Below, one piece after another: positions 11,169 to 51,250 of a DNA stretch of 64,000 nt. Position numbers and translations under genes: made by a program. Numbering within the stretch: the stretch's first letter is position 1; each line of letters begins with the position of its first letter. The notes under the pieces are model-generated. The model was not told the DNA's origin. It made no database searches and saw only the letters and a list, made by a program, of their open reading frames with translations. This DNA is from Armatimonadota bacterium (lineage in GTDB: Bacteria > Armatimonadota > SYMT01): assembly GCA_041690135.1 (NCBI GenBank), contig JAWLHY010000014.1, positions 14,140 to 78,139 on the forward strand, in the 5' to 3' direction.

Positions 11169-12641
11169 ATGAAGGCTGTGTTTATTGTACTGGATACGGT
11201 CCGGCGGGATTACCTGGAGGCGTACGGCAGCTCCTGGGTGAAGACGCCGAACCTGGCCCGCCTCTCCCGCGCGGGTGTGACCTTCGATAACCACTGGGTG
11301 GGGTCGCTGCCCTGCATGCCGGCGCGGCGGGAGTTCATGACGGGCCGGCACAACTTCCTCTACCGGGGCTGGGGGCCCATCGAGCCGTACGACGACGTGC
11401 TGCCGGCTGAGCTCCGGAAGGCCGGGGTGTTCACGCACCTGCTAACGGACCACTTCCATTACTTCGAACTGGGTGGGGAGAACTACCACACCGCGTTTAA
11501 CACCTGGGAGTTCTTCCGCGGTACAGAGTACGATCCCTGGGTCTCTCTCGTGGATGCCATGGCTCTCCCGGAGCACCTGGGGCGCCTGACCGCCCAGAAC
11601 TGGCACAACCGGCAGCGCCAGCAGCAGGAAGAGGACTTTTCCGGGCCCCGCACGGCCGCCGCCGCCGTGGAGTGGCTCCACGCGAACCGGAACGCCGACC
11701 AGTGGTTCCTGCAGGTGGAGATCTTCGACCCGCACGAGCCGTTCTACTGCACGGACCAGTACCGGGAGATGTACGGCGATACGTGGGACGGCCCCCTCTA
11801 CGACTGGCCGAAGTACGAGGCGGTCCAGGACTCGCCGGAAGCGATCGAGCATATCCGCAAATGCTACGCGGGCCTGCTGACGATGACGGACCACTGGGTC
11901 GGAAAGGTGCTGGATACGCTGGAAGAGCTGGGCCTGTGGGACGAAACGCTGATCGTGTTCACCACCGATCACGGCACCATGCTGGGCGAACATCAATACT
12001 GGATGAAGAACTACATGCCGGTCTACAACGAGATCGCCTGCCTCCCGCTGGTGATGAAGCTGCCGGGCGGAGAGCGTGCCGGCCGCCGGAGCGCCGCCCT
12101 GACGCAAACGATCGACCTGATGCCGACCTTCCTCGACTACTTCGGCTGTCCGGCGCCGCCGCACGTCTACGGCCACTCCCTGCGGTCCGCCCTGGACGGC
12201 ACGAGCTCCCGGCGGGACTGCATCTTCGGCTACTTCGGCAAGGCGATGAACATCACGGACGGGCAGCACGTTTACTTCCGCAACCCGGTGAACGCGGACG
12301 GCGGTCCGCTGTACGCCTACACCGCCATGCCGACCGGAGGGTTGAACCGCTGGTACCCGCGGGAAGATTACCCGCGCTGGGAGATGGGCCGCTACTTCGG
12401 CCACACCTACAACATGCCGCTCTACCGGATCCCGGAAGCCGGGCAGGTGCCCGAAGCCGTTCCAGGGGAAGAGAGCTTCGCCGGCCGCCACTTCCTGTAC
12501 GACCTCCGGGAGGACCCCCGGCAGGAGAACCCGCTGCAGGATCCCGCCCTGGAGGCCCACTTCGTGGACCGGATCGTCGCCCACCTCCAGGCCTGCGAGG
12601 CCCCCGCGGAGCAGTACACCCGGCTTGGCTTCGCGGATTAG
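11169..12641 (+). CDS. sulfatase (Cys-type, no signal peptide)
   Basis: MKAVFIVLDTVRRD, CMPAR, FDPHEP, TTDHG. GGAGG before ATG 11169; the ORF-track extension upstream is repeat DNA. Confidence 0.92.
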   Translation: MKAVFIVLDTVRRDYLEAYGSSWVKTPNLARLSRAGVTFDNHWVGSLPCMPARREFMTGRHNFLYRGWGPIEPYDDVLPAELRKAGVFTHLLTDHFHYFELGGENYHTAFNTWEFFRGTEYDPWVSLVDAMALPEHLGRLTAQNWHNRQRQQQEEDFSGPRTAAAAVEWLHANRNADQWFLQVEIFDPHEPFYCTDQYREMYGDTWDGPLYDWPKYEAVQDSPEAIEHIRKCYAGLLTMTDHWVGKVLDTLEELGLWDETLIVFTTDHGTMLGEHQYWMKNYMPVYNEIACLPLVMKLPGGERAGRRSAALTQTIDLMPTFLDYFGCPAPPHVYGHSLRSALDGTSSRRDCIFGYFGKAMNITDGQHVYFRNPVNADGGPLYAYTAMPTGGLNRWYPREDYPRWEMGRYFGHTYNMPLYRIPEAGQVPEAVPGEESFAGRHFLYDLREDPRQENPLQDPALEAHFVDRIVAHLQACEAPAEQYTRLGFAD

Positions 12642-12762: not shown

Positions 12763-15700
12763 ATGGCGCCGGGGGATTTGCTGCGGGAACTGGATAGCCT
12801 GCCGTTTTCGGGCCGGATGGCGCGGATGGTGGAGATCGGGCGCGCCTCGCTCGAGGACGCCGGTCTTCGCGAACTCCTGGCGGAATGGGAGCAGGGGGAG
12901 TGGTACGAGCGGTTCCTCTCGCTCCAGGCCTGTTACGGCAGCGGCAATGGGGCGCGGGTGCTGCGCTCCGTGGGCGATCCTTCGCGCGGCATCCGGGGGC
13001 TCGCTCTCAAGCTCGCCGGACACGTGTGCGATGACGAACAGGTCCTGGCGGCGCTCCGGCAGCTTCCGAAGGCCGCGCGGCAGGCCCTGCTCCGCCAGCT
13101 TGTGAAGGTAGGGCGCCGGAATGCCGTCGATCCGTACCTCGCTTCCCTGGCCGCCGGGCGAGATCCCGAGCTGGGCCGGTATCTCGCCTATGGGAGCGCG
13201 GAGACCGCGGAGGCCCACCTGGAGCAGGTGGCGGAGGCCGCCAGTGATACGGACTGGCAGCGGGTGGCCCGCCATCATCCCCGGATCGCCGCCGCGCACC
13301 TTCTCTCGCGCGCCCGGGCGGAGAGCGGTCCGAACCCGCGCCTCCGGTGGCAGGCGAATGCCGTGCTGGACCGCCTGGCCCGGTTCTGCCCGGACCAGGC
13401 GCTGACACTCGTTGAGCAGTTGCTGCAGCACTCGCCGCCGGATCAAATCGCGTTAGAAGGCCTCTCCCGCCGCCGGCCCACGAAACTGGTGGACCTGCTG
13501 CTAACCATGGAGGGGCGGGCACGCCTCAACCTTGCGCCGGTCGCCCACCGGCTCGACCCGGCGCGCCTCCTCGCGGTGCTGGAACATCGTTTGCAGTTGC
13601 TGCCGGACCCCGTTTACTGGTTCGGTCGCCTGGCTCCTGGGTCGCGGGCGGAGGTGTACCGGCAGATGGAGTACCGGTGGCGCTGGAAGGACGGCACGTT
13701 CCCGCTGGAGCTGGCGGCGGACCTGCCGGGAGTAGCCCGCGCGGCGGAAGGGCGCCGCCACCTGTCGCTTCCCGAGCTCGCCACCCGGGAGGCGGAGCGG
13801 ATCGAGTATACATGCCTGCTGCCGTGGGACGAGGCGACTCCGGTCCTGAAGCCGTACCTGGGCAACCCCGACCCCAACCTGCGGGCCGTGGCCCTTTCCG
13901 CCCGCATCCGATCGGCGCGGTACCAGCGGGAACGGCTTCCGGACGTGCTGGCCCTGGTCCGCGCTCGCCCCTTCGAGCAGGACCCGGTGCGGAACGCCAT
14001 GCTGGGGGCGCTGGCGGATCTCCCGCCGGCACGCTGGCAGGCGGAGCGCCTGGAGGACCTCTCCGCGATCCTGCGGGCGATGCTCGATGCCGCCGACCTC
14101 TCCCAGGCGACGGCTGCCCATGCCGAGCGGCTGATTCTGGCGCTGCTGCCGTTCCACCCGGAGTGGGCCGCCGGTTGGCTGGGCACCCTGGTGCAGGAGC
14201 GGGGACGGATCAGCTTCGGCGACCTGGAAGACCGGATCTCCGACCGCACGGCCCGCCAGATCGCCCCGGCCTTGCTGCCAGTGCTGGAAGAATGGGAGGC
14301 CCGCGAGCGGCAGCAGCACCTCATCGCCGCCGCCCGGAGCCTGGGCCGCCGCCTGAAAGTGCTGCCGGAGTTGGTGGAGATTCTGGAGCGAGTGATCGGG
14401 AGCACGCGGGAGCGCTGGGTCGCCGCGACCGGATTGATCCTGATCCAGCAGCACCGTCCCCAACGGGCGGCCGAGCTGATCCCGGAGCTGCTGCACGCGG
14501 ACCCGAGCTGGATCACGCAGTCGCCGGTCTACGAACACCTTCACCTCCGGCGGCAGGACCTGCTGGGGCCTTTCCTGGGGCGACAGGCGTACGGCGGCCG
14601 GTTCAGCACGGGGAAGACGGCCTTCGTGCTGCCGGTCCGGGACGGCTTCGGGCGCTGGACGCCCGCGCAGCAGGAAACCTTCGCGGAAACCCTCTACGCC
14701 GTGATCCGCGACAGCGGACGGGACTCGCCCTCCATCTTCTTCAGCCTCTCGCGCCTGGCGGAGCTGCCCGCCATATCCCCGCGATTCCTGCTCCGGCTCG
14801 CGCGGGTGGAGAACCGGAAGACGGCGGTCCGCGATATCGCACTGCGTGCCCTCGGGCGGCTCGATGCCGGCCAGGGGGTGCCGCACCTGGTGGAAGCGCT
14901 GGAGGATGAGCGGGCGCGGGTCGCCATCTACGCCCTGCGGCAGGCGCTGCTGGAGATGCCTGCGCCGCAGGCCCTCGCTTTCCTGCGGGCGGTGCCGCGA
15001 GAGAAGGTCACGGTCGCCAAAGAGGTGGTCCGGCTCCTGGGCGATTTGCCGGGGGAGGAGGCGTACCGTGCGCTACTGGCGTTCAACGAGGAAGAGCTGC
15101 ACCGGGACGTGCGGGTGGCGCTGCTGCGCGCCCTGTGGGAGCACCTGGAGCGAGAGGAAACCTGGCCCCTGCTGGAACAGGCGGCGACCTCGCCCGACGC
15201 GGCCCTGGCCACGGCGGTGAGCCGGGTCCCCGCCACGCGCCTCTCCCCGGCCGCGGGTCGCCGGTTGTGTCAGCTCCTGACGCGGCTGTTACAGCACCCG
15301 GACCCGGCGGTCCGGAGCGCCGCGCTGCAGCGGTGTAACGACCTGCCCGTGGCGGACCCCGAGCGGGTGCTGCTCGCCCCTATCCTGGCCTGCCTCGACT
15401 CGCCGGTCCCGCCCCTCCAACGGAACGCCTCCCAGGCGTTGCTGGCGACCTATCACGGTAAGGACGACCCGGCCATCGCGGAGGCGCTGCGGGGGATGCT
15501 GGGAAACCGGCGCGCGGTCCACACCCTGATCTTGCTGGTGGAGACGCGGGCTATCTGGGAGGCGGGCCGGCAGCGCCCCCTGGCCCGGAAGCTGCTCCCG
15601 GTGCTGGAGAGCGATCCGCTCACCGTTGCGCTGCAGCTCCAACTGGCCCTCTCCGCCCTGCCCTGGAAGGAAGGGGGAGCCCTCCTGACCCGCCTGGCGG

Positions 15701-26288: not shown

Positions 26289-26409
26289 GGGCGCCGCAGT
26301 CGCGACACCGCCAGTGCCGCCACGACACTCTGGAAGGCAGGGCAGTGGAGTGCCCTCGGTGAATGTACGGGGACGCTGCTTCACCTATTCCCTTTCCCGG
26401 AGGTCGTTC

Positions 26410-28635
26410 ATGGAGAGTACCCTTAACCGCGTTCATCGCCGGTTTGTCGTCCCGGTACTCACGGTTCTGCTACTGACCGCGGGCTCGTTGGCCCGTGCCT
26501 CCGTCACCGCCCCTTCCGTTTCCGCGAGGGCCAATCCCCGGCCCAATATTCTGGTGATCCTCTCGGACGACATGGGCTACTCCGATATCGGGTGCTACGG
26601 GGGCGAGATCCGCACCCCCAACCTGGATCGCCTCGCAAAGAACGGGCTGCGGTTCACCCAGTTCTACAATACCGCTCGTTGCTGCCCCACCCGCGCCAGC
26701 CTCCTCAGCGGTCTCTACCCCCACCAGGCCGGCGTTGGGCACATGATGGACGACCGCGGCCACGACGGCTACCGGGGAGAGCTGAACCGGCGCAGCGTCA
26801 CGATCGCCGAAGCGCTGAAGCCTGCCGGCTACCGCACCTATATGACCGGCAAGTGGCACATCACCAAGGCGACCCGGCCGGAAGGTCCTAAGGACAACTG
26901 GCCCCGCCAGCGCGGCTTCGACCGGTTCTACGGCACGATCACCGGGGCCGGCAGCTTCTATGACCCGGGCACCCTCACCCGCGACAACACCGCCGTCTCC
27001 GCCTATGCGGACCCGGAGTACCGGCCGAAGCGGTACTACTACACGGACGCCATCAGCGATCACGCCATCCGCTACCTGCGGGAACACCGGCAATCCGACC
27101 CGGCGAACCCCTTCTTCATGTACGTCGCCTACACGGCGGCCCACTGGCCAATGCACGCGCTGGAGGAGGACATCGCCCGCTACCGCGGCCGGTACGACCA
27201 GGGCTACGCGCCGGTGCGCCGGGCCCGGTTCGAGCGCATGAAGAAGCTGGACCTGATCGACCGCAGCTCGCCGATGAGCGCCATCGTGGGCGAATGGAGC
27301 GGGGTGGACAACAAGGCGTGGGAAAGCCGCTGCATGGAGGTGTACGCCGCCATGGTGGATCGGATGGACCAAGGCATCGGGCGGATCGTGGAGACTCTGA
27401 AGGCGACCGGCCAACTCGAGAACACCCTCATCCTCTACATGCAGGACAACGGCGGCTGCGCCGAAACGGTCGGGCGCAGCGGTAACCAGGCCCGTGCGGA
27501 GCGGCCCACCCTCCCCGCCATGCGGCCCGAAGAGCTGATGGGCGGGATTCGACCCTCGCAGACCCGCAGCGGTTATCCGGTGCTCACCGGCACCGGCGTG
27601 ATGCCCGGCCCGGACGACACCTACATTGCCTACGGCGAGGGCTGGGCGAACGTCTCCAACACCCCCTTTCGCGAGTACAAGCACTGGGTCCACGAAGGCG
27701 GCATCTCCACCCCGCTGATTGCGCACTGGCCCCGCGGCATCCGCAAGGCCCAGCGGAACCGGCTGGTCACCGATCCCGGCCACCTCATCGACGTGATGGC
27801 GACCTGCATCGACCTCTCCGGGGTCGCTTATCCCCGGGAGCGCAATGGGCAGGCAATCACGCCACCGGAAGGGATCAGCCTGCGCCCGGCGTTCGAGGGC
27901 CGTCCGCTCTCCCGGCCAAAGCCGATCTTCTGGGAGCACGAGGGGAACCGGGCCGTCCGGGTGGGCTCCTGGAAGCTGGTAGCCAAAGGGGAAAAGGGCC
28001 CCTGGGAGCTGTATGACCTCACCACCGACCGCACCGAGCAGCAGGATCTGGCCGCGCGTCATCCGGAGCGGGTGAAGGAGATGGCCGCGCAGTGGCAGGC
28101 CTGGGCCGAGCGGTCTATGGTGCTGCCGCTCAACCCTCGCCCGGCGGGACGGGCAGCGGAAACCTTCAGCACCCGGAAACGGTTCGAGTTGAAGGGCGGG
28201 GACGAGCTGCCCCGCGAGCAAGCCCCCAACGTCAGGGGTAAAGGGTTCGCACTCACGCTCGAAATCACCGCACCGGGCGAAGAGGGGGTGCTGGTCGCGC
28301 AGGGTGGCTCGGCCGAAGGCTACGCGCTCTACGTCCAGGCGGGGAAGCCGGTGTTCGCCATGCGGCACGGCGGAAAGCTGACCCAACTGGCCGCGCCGGA
28401 CCGCCTGCCCGCGGGACCGGTCCGGCTCATCCTATCGCTCAATTCGGACGGCACGGTTAGCCTTCGCTCTGGGGACCGGGAGCTCGTTTCCGGGAAAGTG
28501 CCGGGCCCCCTCGGCCGGATGCCCGTCGACGGCCTCCAGGTCGGCCGCGACACGACGGGAGCGGTAGGCCCTTACACGGCCCCATTTCCCTTCACCGGGA
28601 GGATCGGCCGGGTAGTGCTGACAGTCACGGAATAG
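26410..28635 (+). CDS. secreted arylsulfatase with C-terminal LamG-like domain
   Basis: Signal peptide, DDMGYSD, CCPTR, GKWH, DNGG, HEGGISTP; C-terminal GVLVAQGG...PFPFTGRIGRV. Confidence 0.92.
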   Translation: MESTLNRVHRRFVVPVLTVLLLTAGSLARASVTAPSVSARANPRPNILVILSDDMGYSDIGCYGGEIRTPNLDRLAKNGLRFTQFYNTARCCPTRASLLSGLYPHQAGVGHMMDDRGHDGYRGELNRRSVTIAEALKPAGYRTYMTGKWHITKATRPEGPKDNWPRQRGFDRFYGTITGAGSFYDPGTLTRDNTAVSAYADPEYRPKRYYYTDAISDHAIRYLREHRQSDPANPFFMYVAYTAAHWPMHALEEDIARYRGRYDQGYAPVRRARFERMKKLDLIDRSSPMSAIVGEWSGVDNKAWESRCMEVYAAMVDRMDQGIGRIVETLKATGQLENTLILYMQDNGGCAETVGRSGNQARAERPTLPAMRPEELMGGIRPSQTRSGYPVLTGTGVMPGPDDTYIAYGEGWANVSNTPFREYKHWVHEGGISTPLIAHWPRGIRKAQRNRLVTDPGHLIDVMATCIDLSGVAYPRERNGQAITPPEGISLRPAFEGRPLSRPKPIFWEHEGNRAVRVGSWKLVAKGEKGPWELYDLTTDRTEQQDLAARHPERVKEMAAQWQAWAERSMVLPLNPRPAGRAAETFSTRKRFELKGGDELPREQAPNVRGKGFALTLEITAPGEEGVLVAQGGSAEGYALYVQAGKPVFAMRHGGKLTQLAAPDRLPAGPVRLILSLNSDGTVSLRSGDRELVSGKVPGPLGRMPVDGLQVGRDTTGAVGPYTAPFPFTGRIGRVVLTVTE

Positions 28636-28659: not shown

Positions 28660-29146
28660 CTACGGGGAAGATCCCCCAGTTTCTTGCTGGGTTGTGTAGG
28701 CTTGCTCCGGGTGATTGGGTTCGTCCGGATAGCGGCGAATCAAGAGGCGATCCTGGACCATGGGGGTCAGGACCTTTTCACGCAGTTTCACAGGTTCGCG
28801 ACCCATCAGTTCCCCCAAGTCAGTTGCTGTGAGATAGCGCCCCTTGCAAAGATCAGTAATGACTGCACGAATCGAGGCGGGAGATAGGCGCGGGGATGTG
28901 CGAGCTGGATGGGCGAGTTGAAGTAATTTTTTCCATTCCAGGTCGTCTCGGGTTTCCGTAGGGGGGAGTTCCCGGCATTAGGGGGGAGGCCCCGGCGTTA
29001 GGGGGGACTCCCCGGCGTTAGGGGAGTCCCCGGCGTTAGGGGGAGTCCCTACGTGCTGGTACCGGCAATCTGTAGGAAGTGCCACGACCGTGGCCCTCTT
29101 TGCAGAGGAAGCTCCGGGCGACCAACCGCTGAAGCACCTGAGTTAG
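28660..29146 (-). pseudogene. 3' remnant of an ATP-binding/winged-helix regulator-like gene, frameshifted in a G-run repeat
   Basis: Hand translation gives LTQVLQRLVARSFLCKEGHGRGTSYRLP, then repeats, then in another frame EWKKLLQLA...LCKGRYLTATDLGELMGR...LREKVLTPMVQDRLLIRRYPDEPNHPEQAY. The 5' part is missing. Confidence 0.7.
28959..29049. repeat. tandem 18-20-bp G-rich repeat
   Basis: TAGGGGGGAG/AC..CCCGGCGT units of 20, 20, 20 and 18 bp plus a partial unit. Confidence 0.9.
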
Positions 29147-29186: not shown

Positions 29187-30281
29187 CTATTCGGGTCTAG
29201 ATTCCAGGGCGGCGGTGAGCTTCCAATCCATCCACCGCCGCCGATGGGGATCGAAGCGCCAGTAGATGCCGTCGACGGCGCCGCGGAGGGTAGTTCGGGT
29301 GCCGTAGTCGAGGACCGCCTCGAAAGCGCCCTCGAAGAGGTCGTAGTCATTCTCGGTCTTTGCCATCTTGATCCGGCCGCTGAGGATCGCCTGCTGCTTC
29401 CCGGCGGGCTTCAGGGTGAGGGTGCCTTTGACGACGCCGAACGGATGGAGCTGCTCGTTGACGCCGGGCGGGAAACAGAGGCGGAGCCAGCGCGACAGGC
29501 GGGAAGCCTCGACCTTGCGGGGCGACTCGGGAAAGGCGAGGGTCTTCCACTCCTCCTGGTTCTCGACGGTTTCGACGACCGGGTAACCATAGGCGCCCTC
29601 GCGACCAGGCACACGGATGAAGAGGCGAACGCCGTCTTTCACCTCCGGCAGCTTCAGGGCGGGCACCACCCTTGGCAGCTTGAGCCCGGCGACGCCGCGG
29701 GCGATCTCACCGGTGAAGTACTCCACGTAAGCGTCCGGCGAGAAGCCGAGCGGGTTGCCGGCGTTGCCGGGGAAACCGTTGAAGCTATGCCGGAGGGTGC
29801 CGTCCGGACCCAGGATGAAGCAGCGGACGTTGGAGCCGCCGCGCTGCGAAGCCTGGTAGAGGGGTAGCAGGTCCGCGGGGATCGGCTCCTGGTTCGCCTG
29901 GCCCCAGAAGGCGACGATGAACGGCTTCAGGGCCTCCACGACCCGGGGTTGAGAGAGGGAACTCCCCCTCACGTGCATCGAGTTCGCTCAACAGTGACCG
30001 CCGCGTAAGTCGCCAGCGTCCTCCAGTTGGGTCGTGGCGACGAAAAGGACCGGACGGTTCTCCTTCGCGGCGCGGGTTTTCGCCTCTTTCAGGGAGCCGG
30101 CCCAGTCCAGCTTGAAGATCTGGAGATCGCGGTCCGCCGGGCGCGCGGACCGGTAGGCGGCTAAAACTCGCGCCACGTCCGGATGGGATGCGGTGGACGG
30201 CGGGGCGGGTGCAGCGGCGGTGGTGACCGCCGCGAGGGTGAGCAGCAAGGAGCCGACAAGCCGTGGCAGAGTTCTGGACAT
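29187..30281 (-). CDS. putative secreted thioredoxin-like selenoprotein (in-frame UGA at 29988-29990)
   Basis: Two track ORFs are in the same frame: GGC GGT CAC TGT TGA GCG AAC TCG ATG = GGHC-U-ANSM. Signal peptide; WAGSLKEAKTRAAKENRPVLFV thioredoxin-like start; GGAGG upstream of ATG 30281. Confidence 0.72.
29938..29987 (-). promoter_or_regulatory. candidate bacterial SECIS element
   Basis: Hairpin GAGGGG-GAGU-UCCCUC with a G-initiated loop about 23 nt after the UGA; possible lower stem GCGAACUCG/CGGGUCGU. Folded by eye. Confidence 0.55.
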
Positions 30282-30517
30282 GGACACCTCCCGTGTTCGC
30301 TATCCCCTAGACGGTGGCCGGAAGGGGGTAGTTCGGCGTGTTGCGCTACCAGCATCGGTCTCCTCCTGCCCTGGGTCCTCTCCCATCACGGCTCCGCCCC
30401 GGCGTTCGGCTCCGCCCCGTCGCCACGATCATTCAGGACGTTCTGAGTATCCTGATCTACTTTGGCGTCGTTCAACTACTACTGGGTTAACGGACGCCAC
30501 TGGCAAGAGTTAAGGAA

Positions 30518-38785: not shown

Positions 38786-40192
38786 TCAATAGTCCCGGAA
38801 CGGCCCTCGCGGTGGGGCGGCGTCCATCTCCCGGCGCCAGGTGTCGAAGCGGGCGCGGACGCGGGCCAGGACTTCCGGATTCTCCGCGGAGAGGTCCCGC
38901 TGCTCGCCGGGGTCCGTGGTCAGATCGAACAGGCCTTTTCCTTTGGCGGAGTCGATCCACTTGTAGTTGCCAACCCGCGCGGCGCGGTCGCTGCGGCGCT
39001 GCCAGAACATCTCCGTCCGGCGGGAGGGCCGCACCCCCTGCAGGACGGGTGTGAGGTTGAAGCCGTCCAGGTGGACGCCTTTCGGCGCTTTCGCGCGCGC
39101 CGCGGCCAGGCAGGTCGGCAGGATCTCCAGAGAGGTGAGGAACTCGTCCGTCACGCGGCCCGCCGGCAGCCGCCGCGGCCACCGGGCGAGGAACGGCACC
39201 CGCAGGCCCCCCTCGAACATCTGCGCCTTGGTTCCGCGCAGGCCGCCGTTATCGGCCGGGCCGCCCCCGCCGTTGTCCGAATGGAAAAGGACGAGGGTGT
39301 CCTCTTCCAGGTCATGCCGGCGCAGGGTATCCAGCAGCTCCCCGATCGCCTCGTCCATGCAGGTGACCATCGCCATGTATTTGGTCCGGTTTGCCTTCGG
39401 GTCGTGGTTCGGGTACTGCTTGAGGTATTTCTCGGGGACCTGGTAGCGGTCTTTCTCCAGGTTGGAGGCGCTGTGCGGCGCGTTGAACGGGACGTAGAGA
39501 AAGAAGGGACGGCGAGCGTTCTCCTCGATGAACCGGACGACCTCGCGGCGGAAGAGGTCCGTGGCGTACCCCTCTTCCTTCACCCGCTCGTTGCCGCGGT
39601 ACATCGAGGGCACGCCGTACCGCTCGTGGGTCCAGTAGTCGATACCGGTGTTCGCGAAGCCGTAGAAGAAGTCGAAGCCCCGCTGGAGCGGGAGGAACCG
39701 CCGCGCCCGACCGCTGTCCCACTTCCCGACCACGCCCGTGCGGTAGCCCTTCGCCTGGAGCATCTCCCCGAGCGTCTTCTCCTGGACGTCGAGGCCCAGG
39801 GTCATCTCGGGGGAGACGGCATACTCCTCCTCCGTGAGCCGGTGGCCGTAATTGGTGACGTCGTTCCGGATCATGTCGTAGAGGCCGTTGCGCTGGGGGT
39901 AGCGCCCCGTGAGGAGACTGCCCCGCGACGGGGTGCACGCCGGCCAGGAGACGTAGAAGTTCGTGGCGCGGACCCCTTCCCGCGCGAGGCGGTCCAGGTT
40001 CGGCGTGCGGATCTCCTTCCCGCCGAAACAGCCGCCGTCCCCGTAGCCCTGGTCGTCCGACACGATGAGCAGGATGTTCGGCGCCCGTCGCCGCTCCGCC
40101 GCCTGCCCGATGCCCTGCCCTACGCCCACGCCGCCGGCCAGCAGCAGGAGCAGCAGGATCCCCGCTCGATTTCTCACCCGGTTCCGCATCAT
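38786..40192 (-). CDS. secreted sulfatase
   Basis: Signal peptide, PNILLIVSDDQGYGD, CTPSR, GKWD, NAPH, SDNG, EGGLRVP. Confidence 0.92.
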   Translation of the reverse strand: MMRNRVRNRAGILLLLLLAGGVGVGQGIGQAAERRRAPNILLIVSDDQGYGDGGCFGGKEIRTPNLDRLAREGVRATNFYVSWPACTPSRGSLLTGRYPQRNGLYDMIRNDVTNYGHRLTEEEYAVSPEMTLGLDVQEKTLGEMLQAKGYRTGVVGKWDSGRARRFLPLQRGFDFFYGFANTGIDYWTHERYGVPSMYRGNERVKEEGYATDLFRREVVRFIEENARRPFFLYVPFNAPHSASNLEKDRYQVPEKYLKQYPNHDPKANRTKYMAMVTCMDEAIGELLDTLRRHDLEEDTLVLFHSDNGGGGPADNGGLRGTKAQMFEGGLRVPFLARWPRRLPAGRVTDEFLTSLEILPTCLAAARAKAPKGVHLDGFNLTPVLQGVRPSRRTEMFWQRRSDRAARVGNYKWIDSAKGKGLFDLTTDPGEQRDLSAENPEVLARVRARFDTWRREMDAAPPRGPFRDY

Positions 40193-49804: not shown

Positions 49805-51250
49805 ATGTTCACCCACAAGCTCCGTTCCGCAGCCGCGCCCTTCTTGTTGCTGGGCAGCCTGACGTTGGGCGCGGTGGCCGCGCAGCAGCGGCCCGCCGCG
49901 GCCCAGGACAAGCCGGCCCGGCCCAACGTGCTGTTCATCGCCGTGGATGACCTCAACCATTGGGTCCGGCACCTGGGCCGGAACCCGCAGGTCATCACGC
50001 CGAACCTGGACCGCCTGGCGAAGCGCGGGGTCACGTTCACGCGTGCCTACTGCGCCGCTCCCGCCTGCAACCCATCGCGGGCGGCGCTGATGTCCGGGCT
50101 ACGACCCTCGACCTCGGGGGTGTACGTCAACGCCACGGACTGGCGTCCCCATATCCCCGAGGCGTTGACCCTGCCCACGCACTTCCGCAAGCAGGGCTAC
50201 TGGGTAGCCGGCGGAGGCAAGATCTATCACGGCGGCTACGACCGTGCTGGCGAGTGGGACGACTACTTCAAGCCGATGGGCGGCGACCCGAAGCCGGCGG
50301 GGACGGACCGCGGGGTCGGCGGCATCGCGTTCGCACCGCTGGATTGTCGCGACGAGGACCTGGCGGATTACCGGATCGCGAGCTGGGCCGTGGAGCAGCT
50401 CGGCAAGACGCACGACAAGCCATTCTTCCTGGCGTGCGGGCTGCACAAGCCGCACATGCCGTGGAGCGTGCCGCGGAAGTATTACGACCTCTACCCCCTG
50501 GACAAGATCCAGCTCCCACCGACGCGGGAGAAGGACCTGGACGACGTGCCGGCGGCCGGGGTGAAGATGGCCGGTCCCCAGGGCGACCACGCGCGGATCC
50601 TGATGTCCGGGCGGTGGAAAGAGGCGGTCCAGGCCTACCTCGCCGCCATCACTTACACCGATATGAACGTGGGACGGGTGCTCGATGCGCTGGAGAAGAG
50701 CCCGCACGCGAAGAACACGATCGTGGTCCTGTGGGGCGACCACGGCTGGCACCTGGGAGAGAAGGAACACTGGCGCAAGTTCGCGCTGTGGGAGGAGGCG
50801 ACCCGCTCTCCCTTGATCTGGAGCGTGCCCGGCGTGACCCGGCCCGGCACCGTGTGCGACCGGACCGTAGACTTCATGAGCCTCTACCCGACGCTCACCG
50901 ATCTCTGCGGCCTGCCCACCCCCGCGCAGGTGGAAGGCGCCAGCATCCGGAAGCTGCTGGCCGACCCCAAAACCGCCTGGAGCACCCCTGCGCTGACGAC
51001 GCATGGCTTCGGCAACCACGCGGTCCGTACGGAGAAATGGCGCTACATCCGCTACCAGGACGGCAACGAAGAGCTTTATGACGAGGCGAAAGACCCCTAC
51101 GAGTGGACCAACCTCGCGCGCTCTTCCGAGACCGCCTCCGTCCGCGCGGAGCTGGCGAAGCACCTGCCCCAGGTCAACAAGCCGTCGCCACCGTTTACGG
51201 GCAACGGCAACGGCGGCATGCGGCGCCGCCGGCGGATGCAGATGAAATAG
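49805..51250 (+). CDS. secreted sulfatase (iduronate-2-sulfatase-like)
   Basis: PNVLFIAVDDLN, CNPSR, GKIYH, KPHMPW, GDHGWHLGEK. Confidence 0.92.
   Translation: MFTHKLRSAAAPFLLLGSLTLGAVAAQQRPAAAQDKPARPNVLFIAVDDLNHWVRHLGRNPQVITPNLDRLAKRGVTFTRAYCAAPACNPSRAALMSGLRPSTSGVYVNATDWRPHIPEALTLPTHFRKQGYWVAGGGKIYHGGYDRAGEWDDYFKPMGGDPKPAGTDRGVGGIAFAPLDCRDEDLADYRIASWAVEQLGKTHDKPFFLACGLHKPHMPWSVPRKYYDLYPLDKIQLPPTREKDLDDVPAAGVKMAGPQGDHARILMSGRWKEAVQAYLAAITYTDMNVGRVLDALEKSPHAKNTIVVLWGDHGWHLGEKEHWRKFALWEEATRSPLIWSVPGVTRPGTVCDRTVDFMSLYPTLTDLCGLPTPAQVEGASIRKLLADPKTAWSTPALTTHGFGNHAVRTEKWRYIRYQDGNEELYDEAKDPYEWTNLARSSETASVRAELAKHLPQVNKPSPPFTGNGNGGMRRRRRMQMK

Follow-up and report, generated by a model that had tools for sequence, protein, structure and literature searches.

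The catalogued prokaryotic selenoprotein families that come closest to the gene treated here are bacterial proteins of the thioredoxin-like type. In a review of May 2026 (PMC13188914), Table 1 has 119 entries for families and subfamilies of prokaryotic selenoproteins, every one of them with an InterPro-type model, and the nearest entries are the VPGUxxT families and the Trx7/PDZ family. The latter (Trx7/PDZ (seleno)protein, NF041199) is the only catalogued selenoprotein family that is assigned to Thioredoxin_7 (PMC9312934; PMC13188914 Table 1). Here we describe a gene located in a stretch of 64,000 nucleotides (nt) of an Armatimonadota bacterium (assembly GCA_041690135.1, contig JAWLHY010000014.1, forward-strand positions 14,140 to 78,139), which as a whole is called the window below. 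At positions 29187-30281, on the minus strand, two open reading frames (ORFs) parted by a TGA codon very probably form a real, unannotated, single selenoprotein gene, for which we estimate a probability of about 0.9. This reading follows from a selenocysteine98 (Sec98, U) column, directly after Cys97, that is conserved as TGA in relatives, together with a hairpin behind the codon, the presence of the Sec machinery in the genome, and a thioredoxin fold that has the codon at its active site. Thioredoxin-fold selenoproteins and standard recoding are of a known kind; what is unusual is the arrangement of the active site, the lack of a Cys orthologue among the matches seen, and the fusion to a beta-barrel.

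According to the ORF listing, the ORFs 29988-30287 (99 aa) and 29187-29978 (263 aa) are in the same frame of the minus strand. The first ends at the TGA, which is followed by three sense codons (Ala-Asn-Ser, 29979-29987) and then by the ATG of the second (29976-29978); the raw DNA around the recoding site reads GGT CAC TGT TGA GCG AAC TCG ATG CAC GTG AGG GGG AGT TCC CTC TCT. This layout had been noticed in the initial annotation and is confirmed in the sequence, as is the read-through protein proposed there: translation of the TGA as U gives 364 residues, ...DAGDLRGGHC-U-ANSMHVRGSSLSQPRVVEALKPFIVAFW..., with adjacent Cys97 and Sec98. There are no further stops or frameshifts in the read-through frame besides this TGA. 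A search of the genome with the read-through protein returned a 364-residue match with one TGA at G000:C14:43329-44420, and no paralogs in the same genome at E ≤ 0.001. The remark that the second ORF has no evident ribosome binding site also agrees with a direct reading of the sequence, in which no Shine-Dalgarno motif comparable to the GGGAGG in front of the first ATG precedes the second. A search of sequencing runs found four that contain 4-6% of the sampled words, with no RNA run among those listed. The elements that define the gene are the following:

29187..30281, minus strand: whole selenoprotein gene, with ATG at 30279-30281, Sec-TGA at 29988-29990 and stop codon TAG at 29187-29189; 364 aa
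30287..30292, minus strand: Shine-Dalgarno-like GGGAGG, 5 nt before the ATG at 30279-30281, read directly from the sequence
29988..29990, minus strand: in-frame TGA, read as selenocysteine 98, in the motif G-H-C-U-A-N-S; a conserved column in relatives
29953..29970, minus strand: SECIS-like hairpin (SECIS, selenocysteine insertion sequence) with a 7-bp stem GAGGGGG/CCCUCUC and loop AGUU

The codon is conserved in all related loci that were compared. A six-frame whole-genome search of 401 genomes, 25 of which had any match, yielded matches in other genomes of the phylum, four of full length and a fifth cut off by a contig end (L015), each with exactly one TGA, and pattern scans of genome and metagenome collections added 15 more loci. 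In the related set of 20 loci thus obtained (19 distinct ones, L040 and L048 being the same in sequence; 31-69% identity), the TGA occupies the same column in 20/20 cases, with exactly one TGA per match. The flanks are conserved on both sides of it (...RP[IV]FF...GHC-U-ANSMHVRGSSLS...), and every locus long enough has both halves, conserved and in a single frame, so that the halves were at no such locus found as separate genes, an outcome that the initial annotation had considered. Another 24 more distant loci, which are raw six-frame matches in unannotated genomes and have only the N-terminal domain in common with the gene, carry TGA (19 loci) or TGC for Cys (5 loci) at the same column. Neither TAA, nor TAG, nor a residue other than Sec or Cys was found at this position in the related or the more distant loci, as had been anticipated for a genuine Sec codon. 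A domain alignment of 29 sequences (A4) has just two invariant columns, a Trp and the Sec/Cys column. SelA was found in all five genomes with TGA-form full-length relatives and in one of the five with Cys-form distant homologues (completeness 86-97%). The closest named relatives are metagenome-assembled genomes (MAGs) of Verrucomicrobiota.

Gene callers split the family into an N-terminal fragment of about 60-130 aa, which is longer if the frame is open upstream, and a C-terminal fragment of about 265 aa. Among 5.8 billion predicted proteins, a word-seeded search found 47 homologues of 208-285 aa. All of them are confined to the C-terminal 57-72% of the query, and most begin in the alignment at the Met three codons past the TGA; this is the pattern to be expected from systematic mis-calling. 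An exhaustive HMMER search with a full-length profile against 1.84 billion representatives detected 260 proteins at E ≤ 0.001. In the best 150 of these 260 matches, to which all figures on spans refer, no protein spans profile positions 85-87: the N-terminal fragments stop at position 84 (one at 83), which is the C-terminus of the protein, and the C-terminal fragments begin at position 88 or later, usually with the first residues of the protein. Six N-terminal fragments that were inspected end in ...GHC or ...GHT, and no Cys-form orthologue was seen among these best 150 of 260 matches. The only named database member of the family is a 265-aa 'hypothetical protein' that corresponds to the C-terminal fragment. 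With the C-terminal ORF, the ESM Atlas returned only unnamed clusters of Planctomycetota and Verrucomicrobiota, at 0.87-0.88 and thus under the lead level of 0.9. Considering that the 260 matches are representative clusters of the 1.84-billion-protein library, with N- and C-terminal fragments of the same gene counted apart, a family model would correct many annotations.

Two of the database proteins have a different architecture. In P0195 an N-terminal fragment ending in ...GHC is preceded by some 300 residues that by eye resemble an extracytoplasmic function (ECF) sigma/anti-sigma region plus a membrane segment, and in P0115 a C-terminal fragment is followed by a second thioredoxin-like lead-in that ends in ...ARC. 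These sequences hint at fused, possibly double-Sec variants of the family.

A hairpin lies where a bacterial SECIS element (bSECIS) would be expected. Its 5' arm GAGGGGG (29964-29970) starts 17 nt after the UGA, its loop AGUU (29960-29963) starts 24 nt after the UGA, and its 3' arm is CCCUCUC (29953-29959); the hairpin noted initially at about 23 nt, with a 'G-initiated' loop, is the same structure with the last G-C pair open. The legend of Fig. 2 in PMC13188914 describes bSECIS elements by a loop of 3-9 nt, a stem of 4-16 bp, a distance of 16-37 nt between UGA and loop and a minimum free energy (MFE) of -7.5 kcal/mol or lower, with a G in the first two loop positions that is usually followed by G or U. 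The hairpin agrees with all four constraints of that legend: the loop has 4 nt with G second and then U, the stem has 7 bp, the distance is 24 nt, and the MFE of the 28-nt hairpin window is -12.2 kcal/mol, which places it among the best 3.9% of windows in its own ORF. That the hairpin stands above chance is concluded from comparative data, i.e. conservation, covariation and frozen codons, and not from energy alone. RNAalifold, applied to the window sequence and 19 orthologous sequences, predicts exactly the same helix, with 97.9% of 140 cells paired as compared to 60.7-87.9% in slid controls. One pair is compensatory (A-U to C-G in four sequences) and another alternates between A-U and G-U. 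The codons of the helix encode a conserved R-G-S-S-L-S, and their synonymous sites are frozen (Gly106 GGG in 13/14, Ser107 AGT in 12/12, Ser108 TCC in 12/12 and Leu109 CTC in 14/14 sequences), whereas in the rest of the gene a conserved G, S or L column has about 3.5 different codons, the commonest at a frequency of about 0.55. The difference points to a constraint at the RNA level.

A hairpin at the same offset is predicted in 33/33 Sec genes, including paralog-type groups in which the stem sequences differ and the peptides encoded at this site are RAVSLS, RQFVWT, DRSFLS or RERSLS, with loops such as CGUGUC, GUU and GGUC. In the five Cys genes, this offset lacks any predicted hairpin of comparable stability. 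The fraction of windows that are equally stable is 0.006-0.081 for 14 full-length orthologues and 0.41-0.78 for the Cys forms.

The genome (assembly of 9.1 Mb in 25 contigs, 65% G+C) encodes all components needed for selenocysteine insertion, a check that had been proposed with the initial annotation and that turned out in its favour. Of these components, selA scored 481 bits and selD, which directly follows selA, 370 bits; selC, the tRNA-Sec with anticodon tca, adjoins them about 460 nt beyond selD. The SelB winged-helix domain was found with 82 bits within an open frame of 644 aa. TGA is the commonest stop codon, ending 1107 of the 2572 stop-free frames of at least 1500 nt, and tRNA-Sec is the sole tRNA with anticodon tca (tRNA-Trp has cca and tRNA-Cys has gca), which excludes a genome-wide reassignment of UGA.

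The genes selA, selD and tRNA-Sec form a compact cluster outside the window (G000 contig C1:1149693-1152363; loci L001 and L005), and selB lies apart from it, at C8:53083. With one in-frame TGA, the SelD of this organism is probably a selenoprotein itself. The same genome has thioredoxin-like open frames with one in-frame TGA each at C5:53377-53580 (L053/L059), C7:132250-132474 (L058), C19:87772-88014 (L061) and C1:169894-170091 (L062); these are weak matches to the VPGUxxT models and are candidates for further selenoproteins.

The suggestion that the UGA falls at the redox site of a thioredoxin-like fold is borne out by structure prediction, and the motif can be refined. The regions of the protein outside the immediate recoding site are:

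30207..30281, minus strand: putative Sec-type signal peptide, approximately residues 1-25, MSRTLPR / LVGSLLLTLAAV / TTAAA, read by eye from the sequence
29682..30182, minus strand: thioredoxin-fold domain, residues 34-200, of the DsbH/DsbD-gamma/AGR (Thioredoxin_7-like) type, from AlphaFold2 (AF2), Foldseek and VIA-align
29190..29639, minus strand: C-terminal small antiparallel beta-barrel, residues 215-364, from AF2 of the domain alone

For the whole protein, AF2 with a 14-sequence alignment gave a mean predicted local distance difference test (pLDDT) of 81.4 and a predicted template modelling score (pTM) of 0.77, with pLDDT below 50 for residues 1-30. In the model one thioredoxin fold extends across the TGA: strand beta1 precedes the codon, and the active-site helix follows it together with the remainder of the fold; the helix begins at residue 97, and a 13-residue loop separates beta1 from the active site. 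Foldseek matched the domain to 1sen (ERp19; E = 3.5e-4), 2ju5 (E = 1.2e-3) and other structures up to E = 6e-3, with probability 1.00, and VIA-align gave Z-scores of 11.1 for DsbH (2ju5), 10.5 for a Bacteroides DsbD-gamma-like protein (3f9u), 10.1 for AGR3 (3ph9) and 9.9 for DsbD-gamma (1vrs), over 110-139 residues. In profile alignments to the PDB the Sec column pairs with the first Cys of the 3f9u motif C-V-N-C (E = 9e-4) and with the Cys of the AGR3 motif C-Q-Y-S, with Ser101 aligned to the second Cys or to the Ser, respectively. The site thus reads as C-U-x-x-S, in which Sec98 would take the attacking position of the first Cys, a resolving Cys at +3 would be lacking, and Cys97 would be an extra vicinal thiol at -1. 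Of 39 aligned loci (the window plus 38 relatives), 37, namely the window and 36 relatives, have this vicinal Cys in front of the Sec codon, and the other two read HTU (L011) and NWU (L010); in all five Cys forms the residue at this place is Ser. In the orthologue alignment His96, Cys97 and Sec98 are adjacent and invariant or nearly so.

The initial annotation described the protein as secreted, with an unrecognized C-terminal domain. As to the former, the signal-like N-terminus is present by eye, and comparable hydrophobic N-termini were seen in 11 of 14 full-length relatives and also in N-terminal fragments; this part of the claim is supported to that extent, and the other three relatives do not share the feature. 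As to the latter, it is still correct that no family can be assigned, and the description can now be refined to a predicted small barrel. AF2 of the C-terminal domain alone, with 60 sequences, gave an up-and-down antiparallel beta-barrel with a pLDDT of 94.6 and a pTM of 0.88. Foldseek found nothing in the PDB at E ≤ 0.001, and VIA-align gave a best Z-score of 8.3 for a designed barrel, followed by OmpW, NspA and similar structures at Z 7-8. Comparison with eight-stranded outer-membrane barrels (OmpW, NspA, PagL) gave Z 7.4-8.3, a range that is typical in the absence of a true match, and predicted similarities up to Z 8.3 reflect a generic arrangement only.

It is useful to compare this predicted protein with the systems that resemble it most. 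Over residues 34-200 it has the same fold as the Thioredoxin_7/DsbH/DsbD-gamma/AGR-ERp18 branch (PF13899; 2ju5, 3f9u, 1vrs, 3ph9, 1sen), with which it also shares a W...A..A.....P[IV]L lead-in and an active residue at the start of helix 1, and its U-A-N-S can be aligned with C-V-N-C of 3f9u and C-Q-Y-S of AGR3. DsbH, DsbD-gamma and AGR work outside the cytoplasm, and by analogy the present protein probably does so as well. It differs from this branch by having Sec instead of Cys, Ser at the resolving position and an additional vicinal Cys, as well as by the 13-residue loop between beta1 and the active site and the fused barrel. The Pfam model PF13899 (gathering score 27 bits) does not match the read-through protein at E ≤ 1, and of 22 relatives scanned five gave a match, each with a score (19.6-22.4 bits) under the cut-off of 27. 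A cysteine-selenocysteine pair is also known from mammalian thioredoxin reductase, which ends in Gly-Cys-Sec-Gly and in which adjacent Cys and Sec can form a selenenylsulfide. However, the GCUG centre of that enzyme is on a flexible C-terminal tail of a flavoenzyme, whereas here the pair would be inside the thioredoxin-fold active site of a stand-alone, putatively exported protein.

The VPGUxxT selenoproteins of types 1 and 2 (NF041382 and NF041383; 'hypothetical protein OS_HP5') are bacterial thioredoxin-like selenoproteins of similar length, with models of 349 and 287 positions, and have Sec first, in UxxT there and in UxxS here; the motif in the present protein is different, namely GHCUANS. 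Their models, with cut-offs of 350 and 275 bits for NF041382 and NF041383, gave no match to the read-through protein and six orthologues (seven scanned), and a search of the genome with them did not find the selenoprotein locus even at E ≤ 1. Paralog-type relatives match the N-terminal part of these models weakly (E 5e-5 to 0.07, 12-27 bits versus cut-offs of 275-350). In the Trx7/PDZ family Sec is last (CxxU) and not first (UxxS), and a PDZ domain takes the place of the beta-barrel; NF041199 (cut-off 300 bits) does not match the read-through protein and reaches 12-14 bits with two paralogs, and a Pfam scan of the read-through protein detected no PDZ domain. More generally, scans of Pfam and NCBIfam gave no match to the read-through protein. 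Full-text literature searches returned no description of the family. The S9 table of a planctomycete paper of 2016 (PMC4807772) has split Sec candidates, named 'thiol-disulfide isomerase-like thioredoxin' or 'hypothetical', from two planctomycetes, given there by IMG identifiers only, which could not be mapped to the family, and for 'hypothetical protein GOS_A' the 2022 review (PMC9312934), as far as its entry goes, offers no model or accession for comparison. Compared with Pfam, NCBIfam and the 119-family table of PMC13188914, and leaving aside GOS_A and the PMC4807772 candidates as not comparable, the earlier suggestion of a possibly undescribed family still stands: it is probably an undescribed family within a wider, unmodelled group of C-U-type thioredoxin-fold selenoproteins found in PVC (Planctomycetota-Verrucomicrobiota-Chlamydiota) bacteria.

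Several observations weigh against the selenoprotein reading or its extensions. The single compensatory pair of the hairpin occurs in four sequences and may represent just one or two events; in the paralog groups the hairpin window is unexceptional for a GC-rich ORF (fraction of equally stable windows 0.005-0.37); and the 60 nt after the UGA do not fold better than shuffled sequences (z = 0.01). A search of Rfam, which may hold no model for bacterial SECIS elements, gave no SECIS match and only two chance-level matches to unrelated families; this is not taken as evidence against the hairpin. In the AF2 model the active-site loop 94-99 has a pLDDT below 50, and this includes the start of the active-site helix. 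A third, weaker profile alignment (3ira) places Sec opposite the second Cys of CHWC. Export is judged from an N-terminus assessed only by eye, and a signal-like segment is missing at the start of three (L012-L014) of the 14 relatives of full length. Finally, gene neighbourhoods are not conserved, so that they support no particular substrate.

A rival reading of the locus is that there are two genes, an exported protein of 99 aa that ends at the TGA and an independent protein of 263 aa that starts at the ATG 29976-29978. Every gene caller makes this call, and most close relatives retain the Met that comes after the TGA. Nevertheless, this is very unlikely to be correct, since a single thioredoxin fold spans the TGA, the Cys-form homologues run through the column without a break, all 20 loci preserve frame and spacing with a stop that is never TAA or TAG, and the second ATG lacks a Shine-Dalgarno motif; moreover, L048, L050 and L011-L015 have Leu, Asp, Asn or Ala in place of this Met, and translation could not start at this position in them. 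A thioredoxin-like gene that was broken by a nonsense mutation of Cys (TGT or TGC) to TGA would require the change of one base in the case of TGC, and Cys forms do exist among distant relatives. We find such a pseudogene scarcely credible, as 39 loci in many genomes and metagenomes have the same TGA and preserve both halves in sequence, the dedicated hairpin with frozen synonymous sites lies behind it and other stops or frameshifts are absent. The identities of 31-69% exclude that the relatives are assembly copies of one sequence. Reassignment of UGA to Trp has been reported in some Verrucomicrobiota (PMC13462651), the group to which the closest named relatives belong, and reading of the codon as Trp, Gly or Cys by reassignment or leaky read-through thus has to be considered. 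This too is highly improbable: long open frames end in TGA more often than in any other stop, there is no UCA-anticodon tRNA besides tRNA-Sec, homologues have Cys and not Trp at the column, and the full set of sel genes is present, with SelA tracking the TGA forms.

If the gene is decoded as a selenoprotein, the UGA at 29988-29990 would be recoded by SelB carrying Sec-tRNA(Sec), which would recognize the hairpin inside the coding sequence. The product may be exported by the Sec pathway and act as a putative selenol-based oxidoreductase of the cell envelope, in which Sec98 would attack an oxidized substrate (a disulfide, sulfenate or peroxide) and the vicinal Cys97 could resolve the adduct as a Cys-Sec selenenylsulfide, after the model of the GCUG end of thioredoxin reductase, with the beta-barrel possibly holding the substrate or a ligand. 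This biochemical role is inferred only. A different function for the same selenoprotein would be that of a metal or metalloid carrier or chaperone, with Hg, Cu, As or Se bound by the Cys-Sec pair, instead of redox catalysis. Several 'CU' families in Table 1 of PMC13188914 are metal- or organometal-related (HgcA, MerB-like SaoL, MbdU, and SaoB with CUxxT), His96, Cys97 and Sec98 are adjacent potential ligands, and the barrel could be a ligand pocket. We regard this as unlikely, while giving it some weight, because His96 is not kept in the paralog groups (which have R, F, P, W or S-type contexts), the relatives by fold are all thiol-disulfide oxidoreductases, and no metal-resistance or transport genes recur alongside. 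As a selenol-based oxidoreductase, the protein would be a natural thioredoxin fold with an attacking Sec, a vicinal Cys, no resolving Cys at +3 and no Cys-form orthologue seen, and hence a test case for the retention of selenium over sulfur. If it is exported, it would imply selenium-dependent redox chemistry in the envelope of PVC bacteria from soil and water.

At least four further groups of paralog-type relatives were distinguished in other genomes of the phylum (loci L008-L010 and L016-L036). They have the Sec column and the hairpin at the same offset in common, and differ in motif and C-terminus:

R-C-U-G-G-A-F group: L009, L017, L018, L020-L022, L033-L036
F-C-U-[TA]-N group: L008, L016, L019, with Cys counterparts E-Y-S-C-A-N-S in L024, L026, L027, L030, L032
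H/G-C-U-Q-N-G group: L023, L025, L028, L029
Outliers, one locus each: L031 (P-C-U-A-G-G; N-terminal region long and hydrophobic) and L010 (N-W-U-P-G-K)

The members that were scanned all stay under the Pfam and NCBIfam cut-offs. A BLASTP match to L017 reaches query residue 306, so that the R-C-U-G-G group has at least part of the barrel domain. We see about an even chance that PVC bacteria have an uncatalogued, mostly apparently exported superfamily of selenoproteins in which a thioredoxin fold with C-U-x-x-S/G/A is combined with family-specific C-terminal domains, and that the gene in the window is its type member. With this finding the prokaryotic selenoproteome would gain one more family, probably a superfamily, from phyla that are not named in the searched text of two selenoproteome reviews.

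No conserved operon was found around the gene in the window and 11 related loci. In the window and in L038 and L039 a sulfatase gene adjoins the selenoprotein gene; the one in the window, at 26314-28635, converges on it. Sulfatase-domain matches are present in the window at 11178-12146, 26542-27825, 39098-40081 and 49922-50911, with at least 73 in the genome, and the adjacency could be due to chance or to sulfatase-rich islands. As a weak lead, sulfatases beside three loci may hint that the protein takes part in envelope biology in PVC bacteria that are rich in sulfatases. In L013 (3-1472) and L014 (2-1474), which belong to one clade, a gene of the S9 prolyl-oligopeptidase type ends 8-9 nt upstream on the same strand, and an S9-like gene is adjacent to the selenoprotein gene in L038. 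Two close relatives, L037 (864-2916) and L045 (2-1367), have a pair of genes for a MacB-type permease and an ATP-binding cassette (ABC) ATPase directly upstream. About 140 nt past the stop codon of the gene in the window, at 28959-29049, there is a 20-nt tandem repeat with consensus TAGGGGGGAGTCCCCGGCGT, present in 4.7 copies with 87% matches, of which each unit is partly palindromic.

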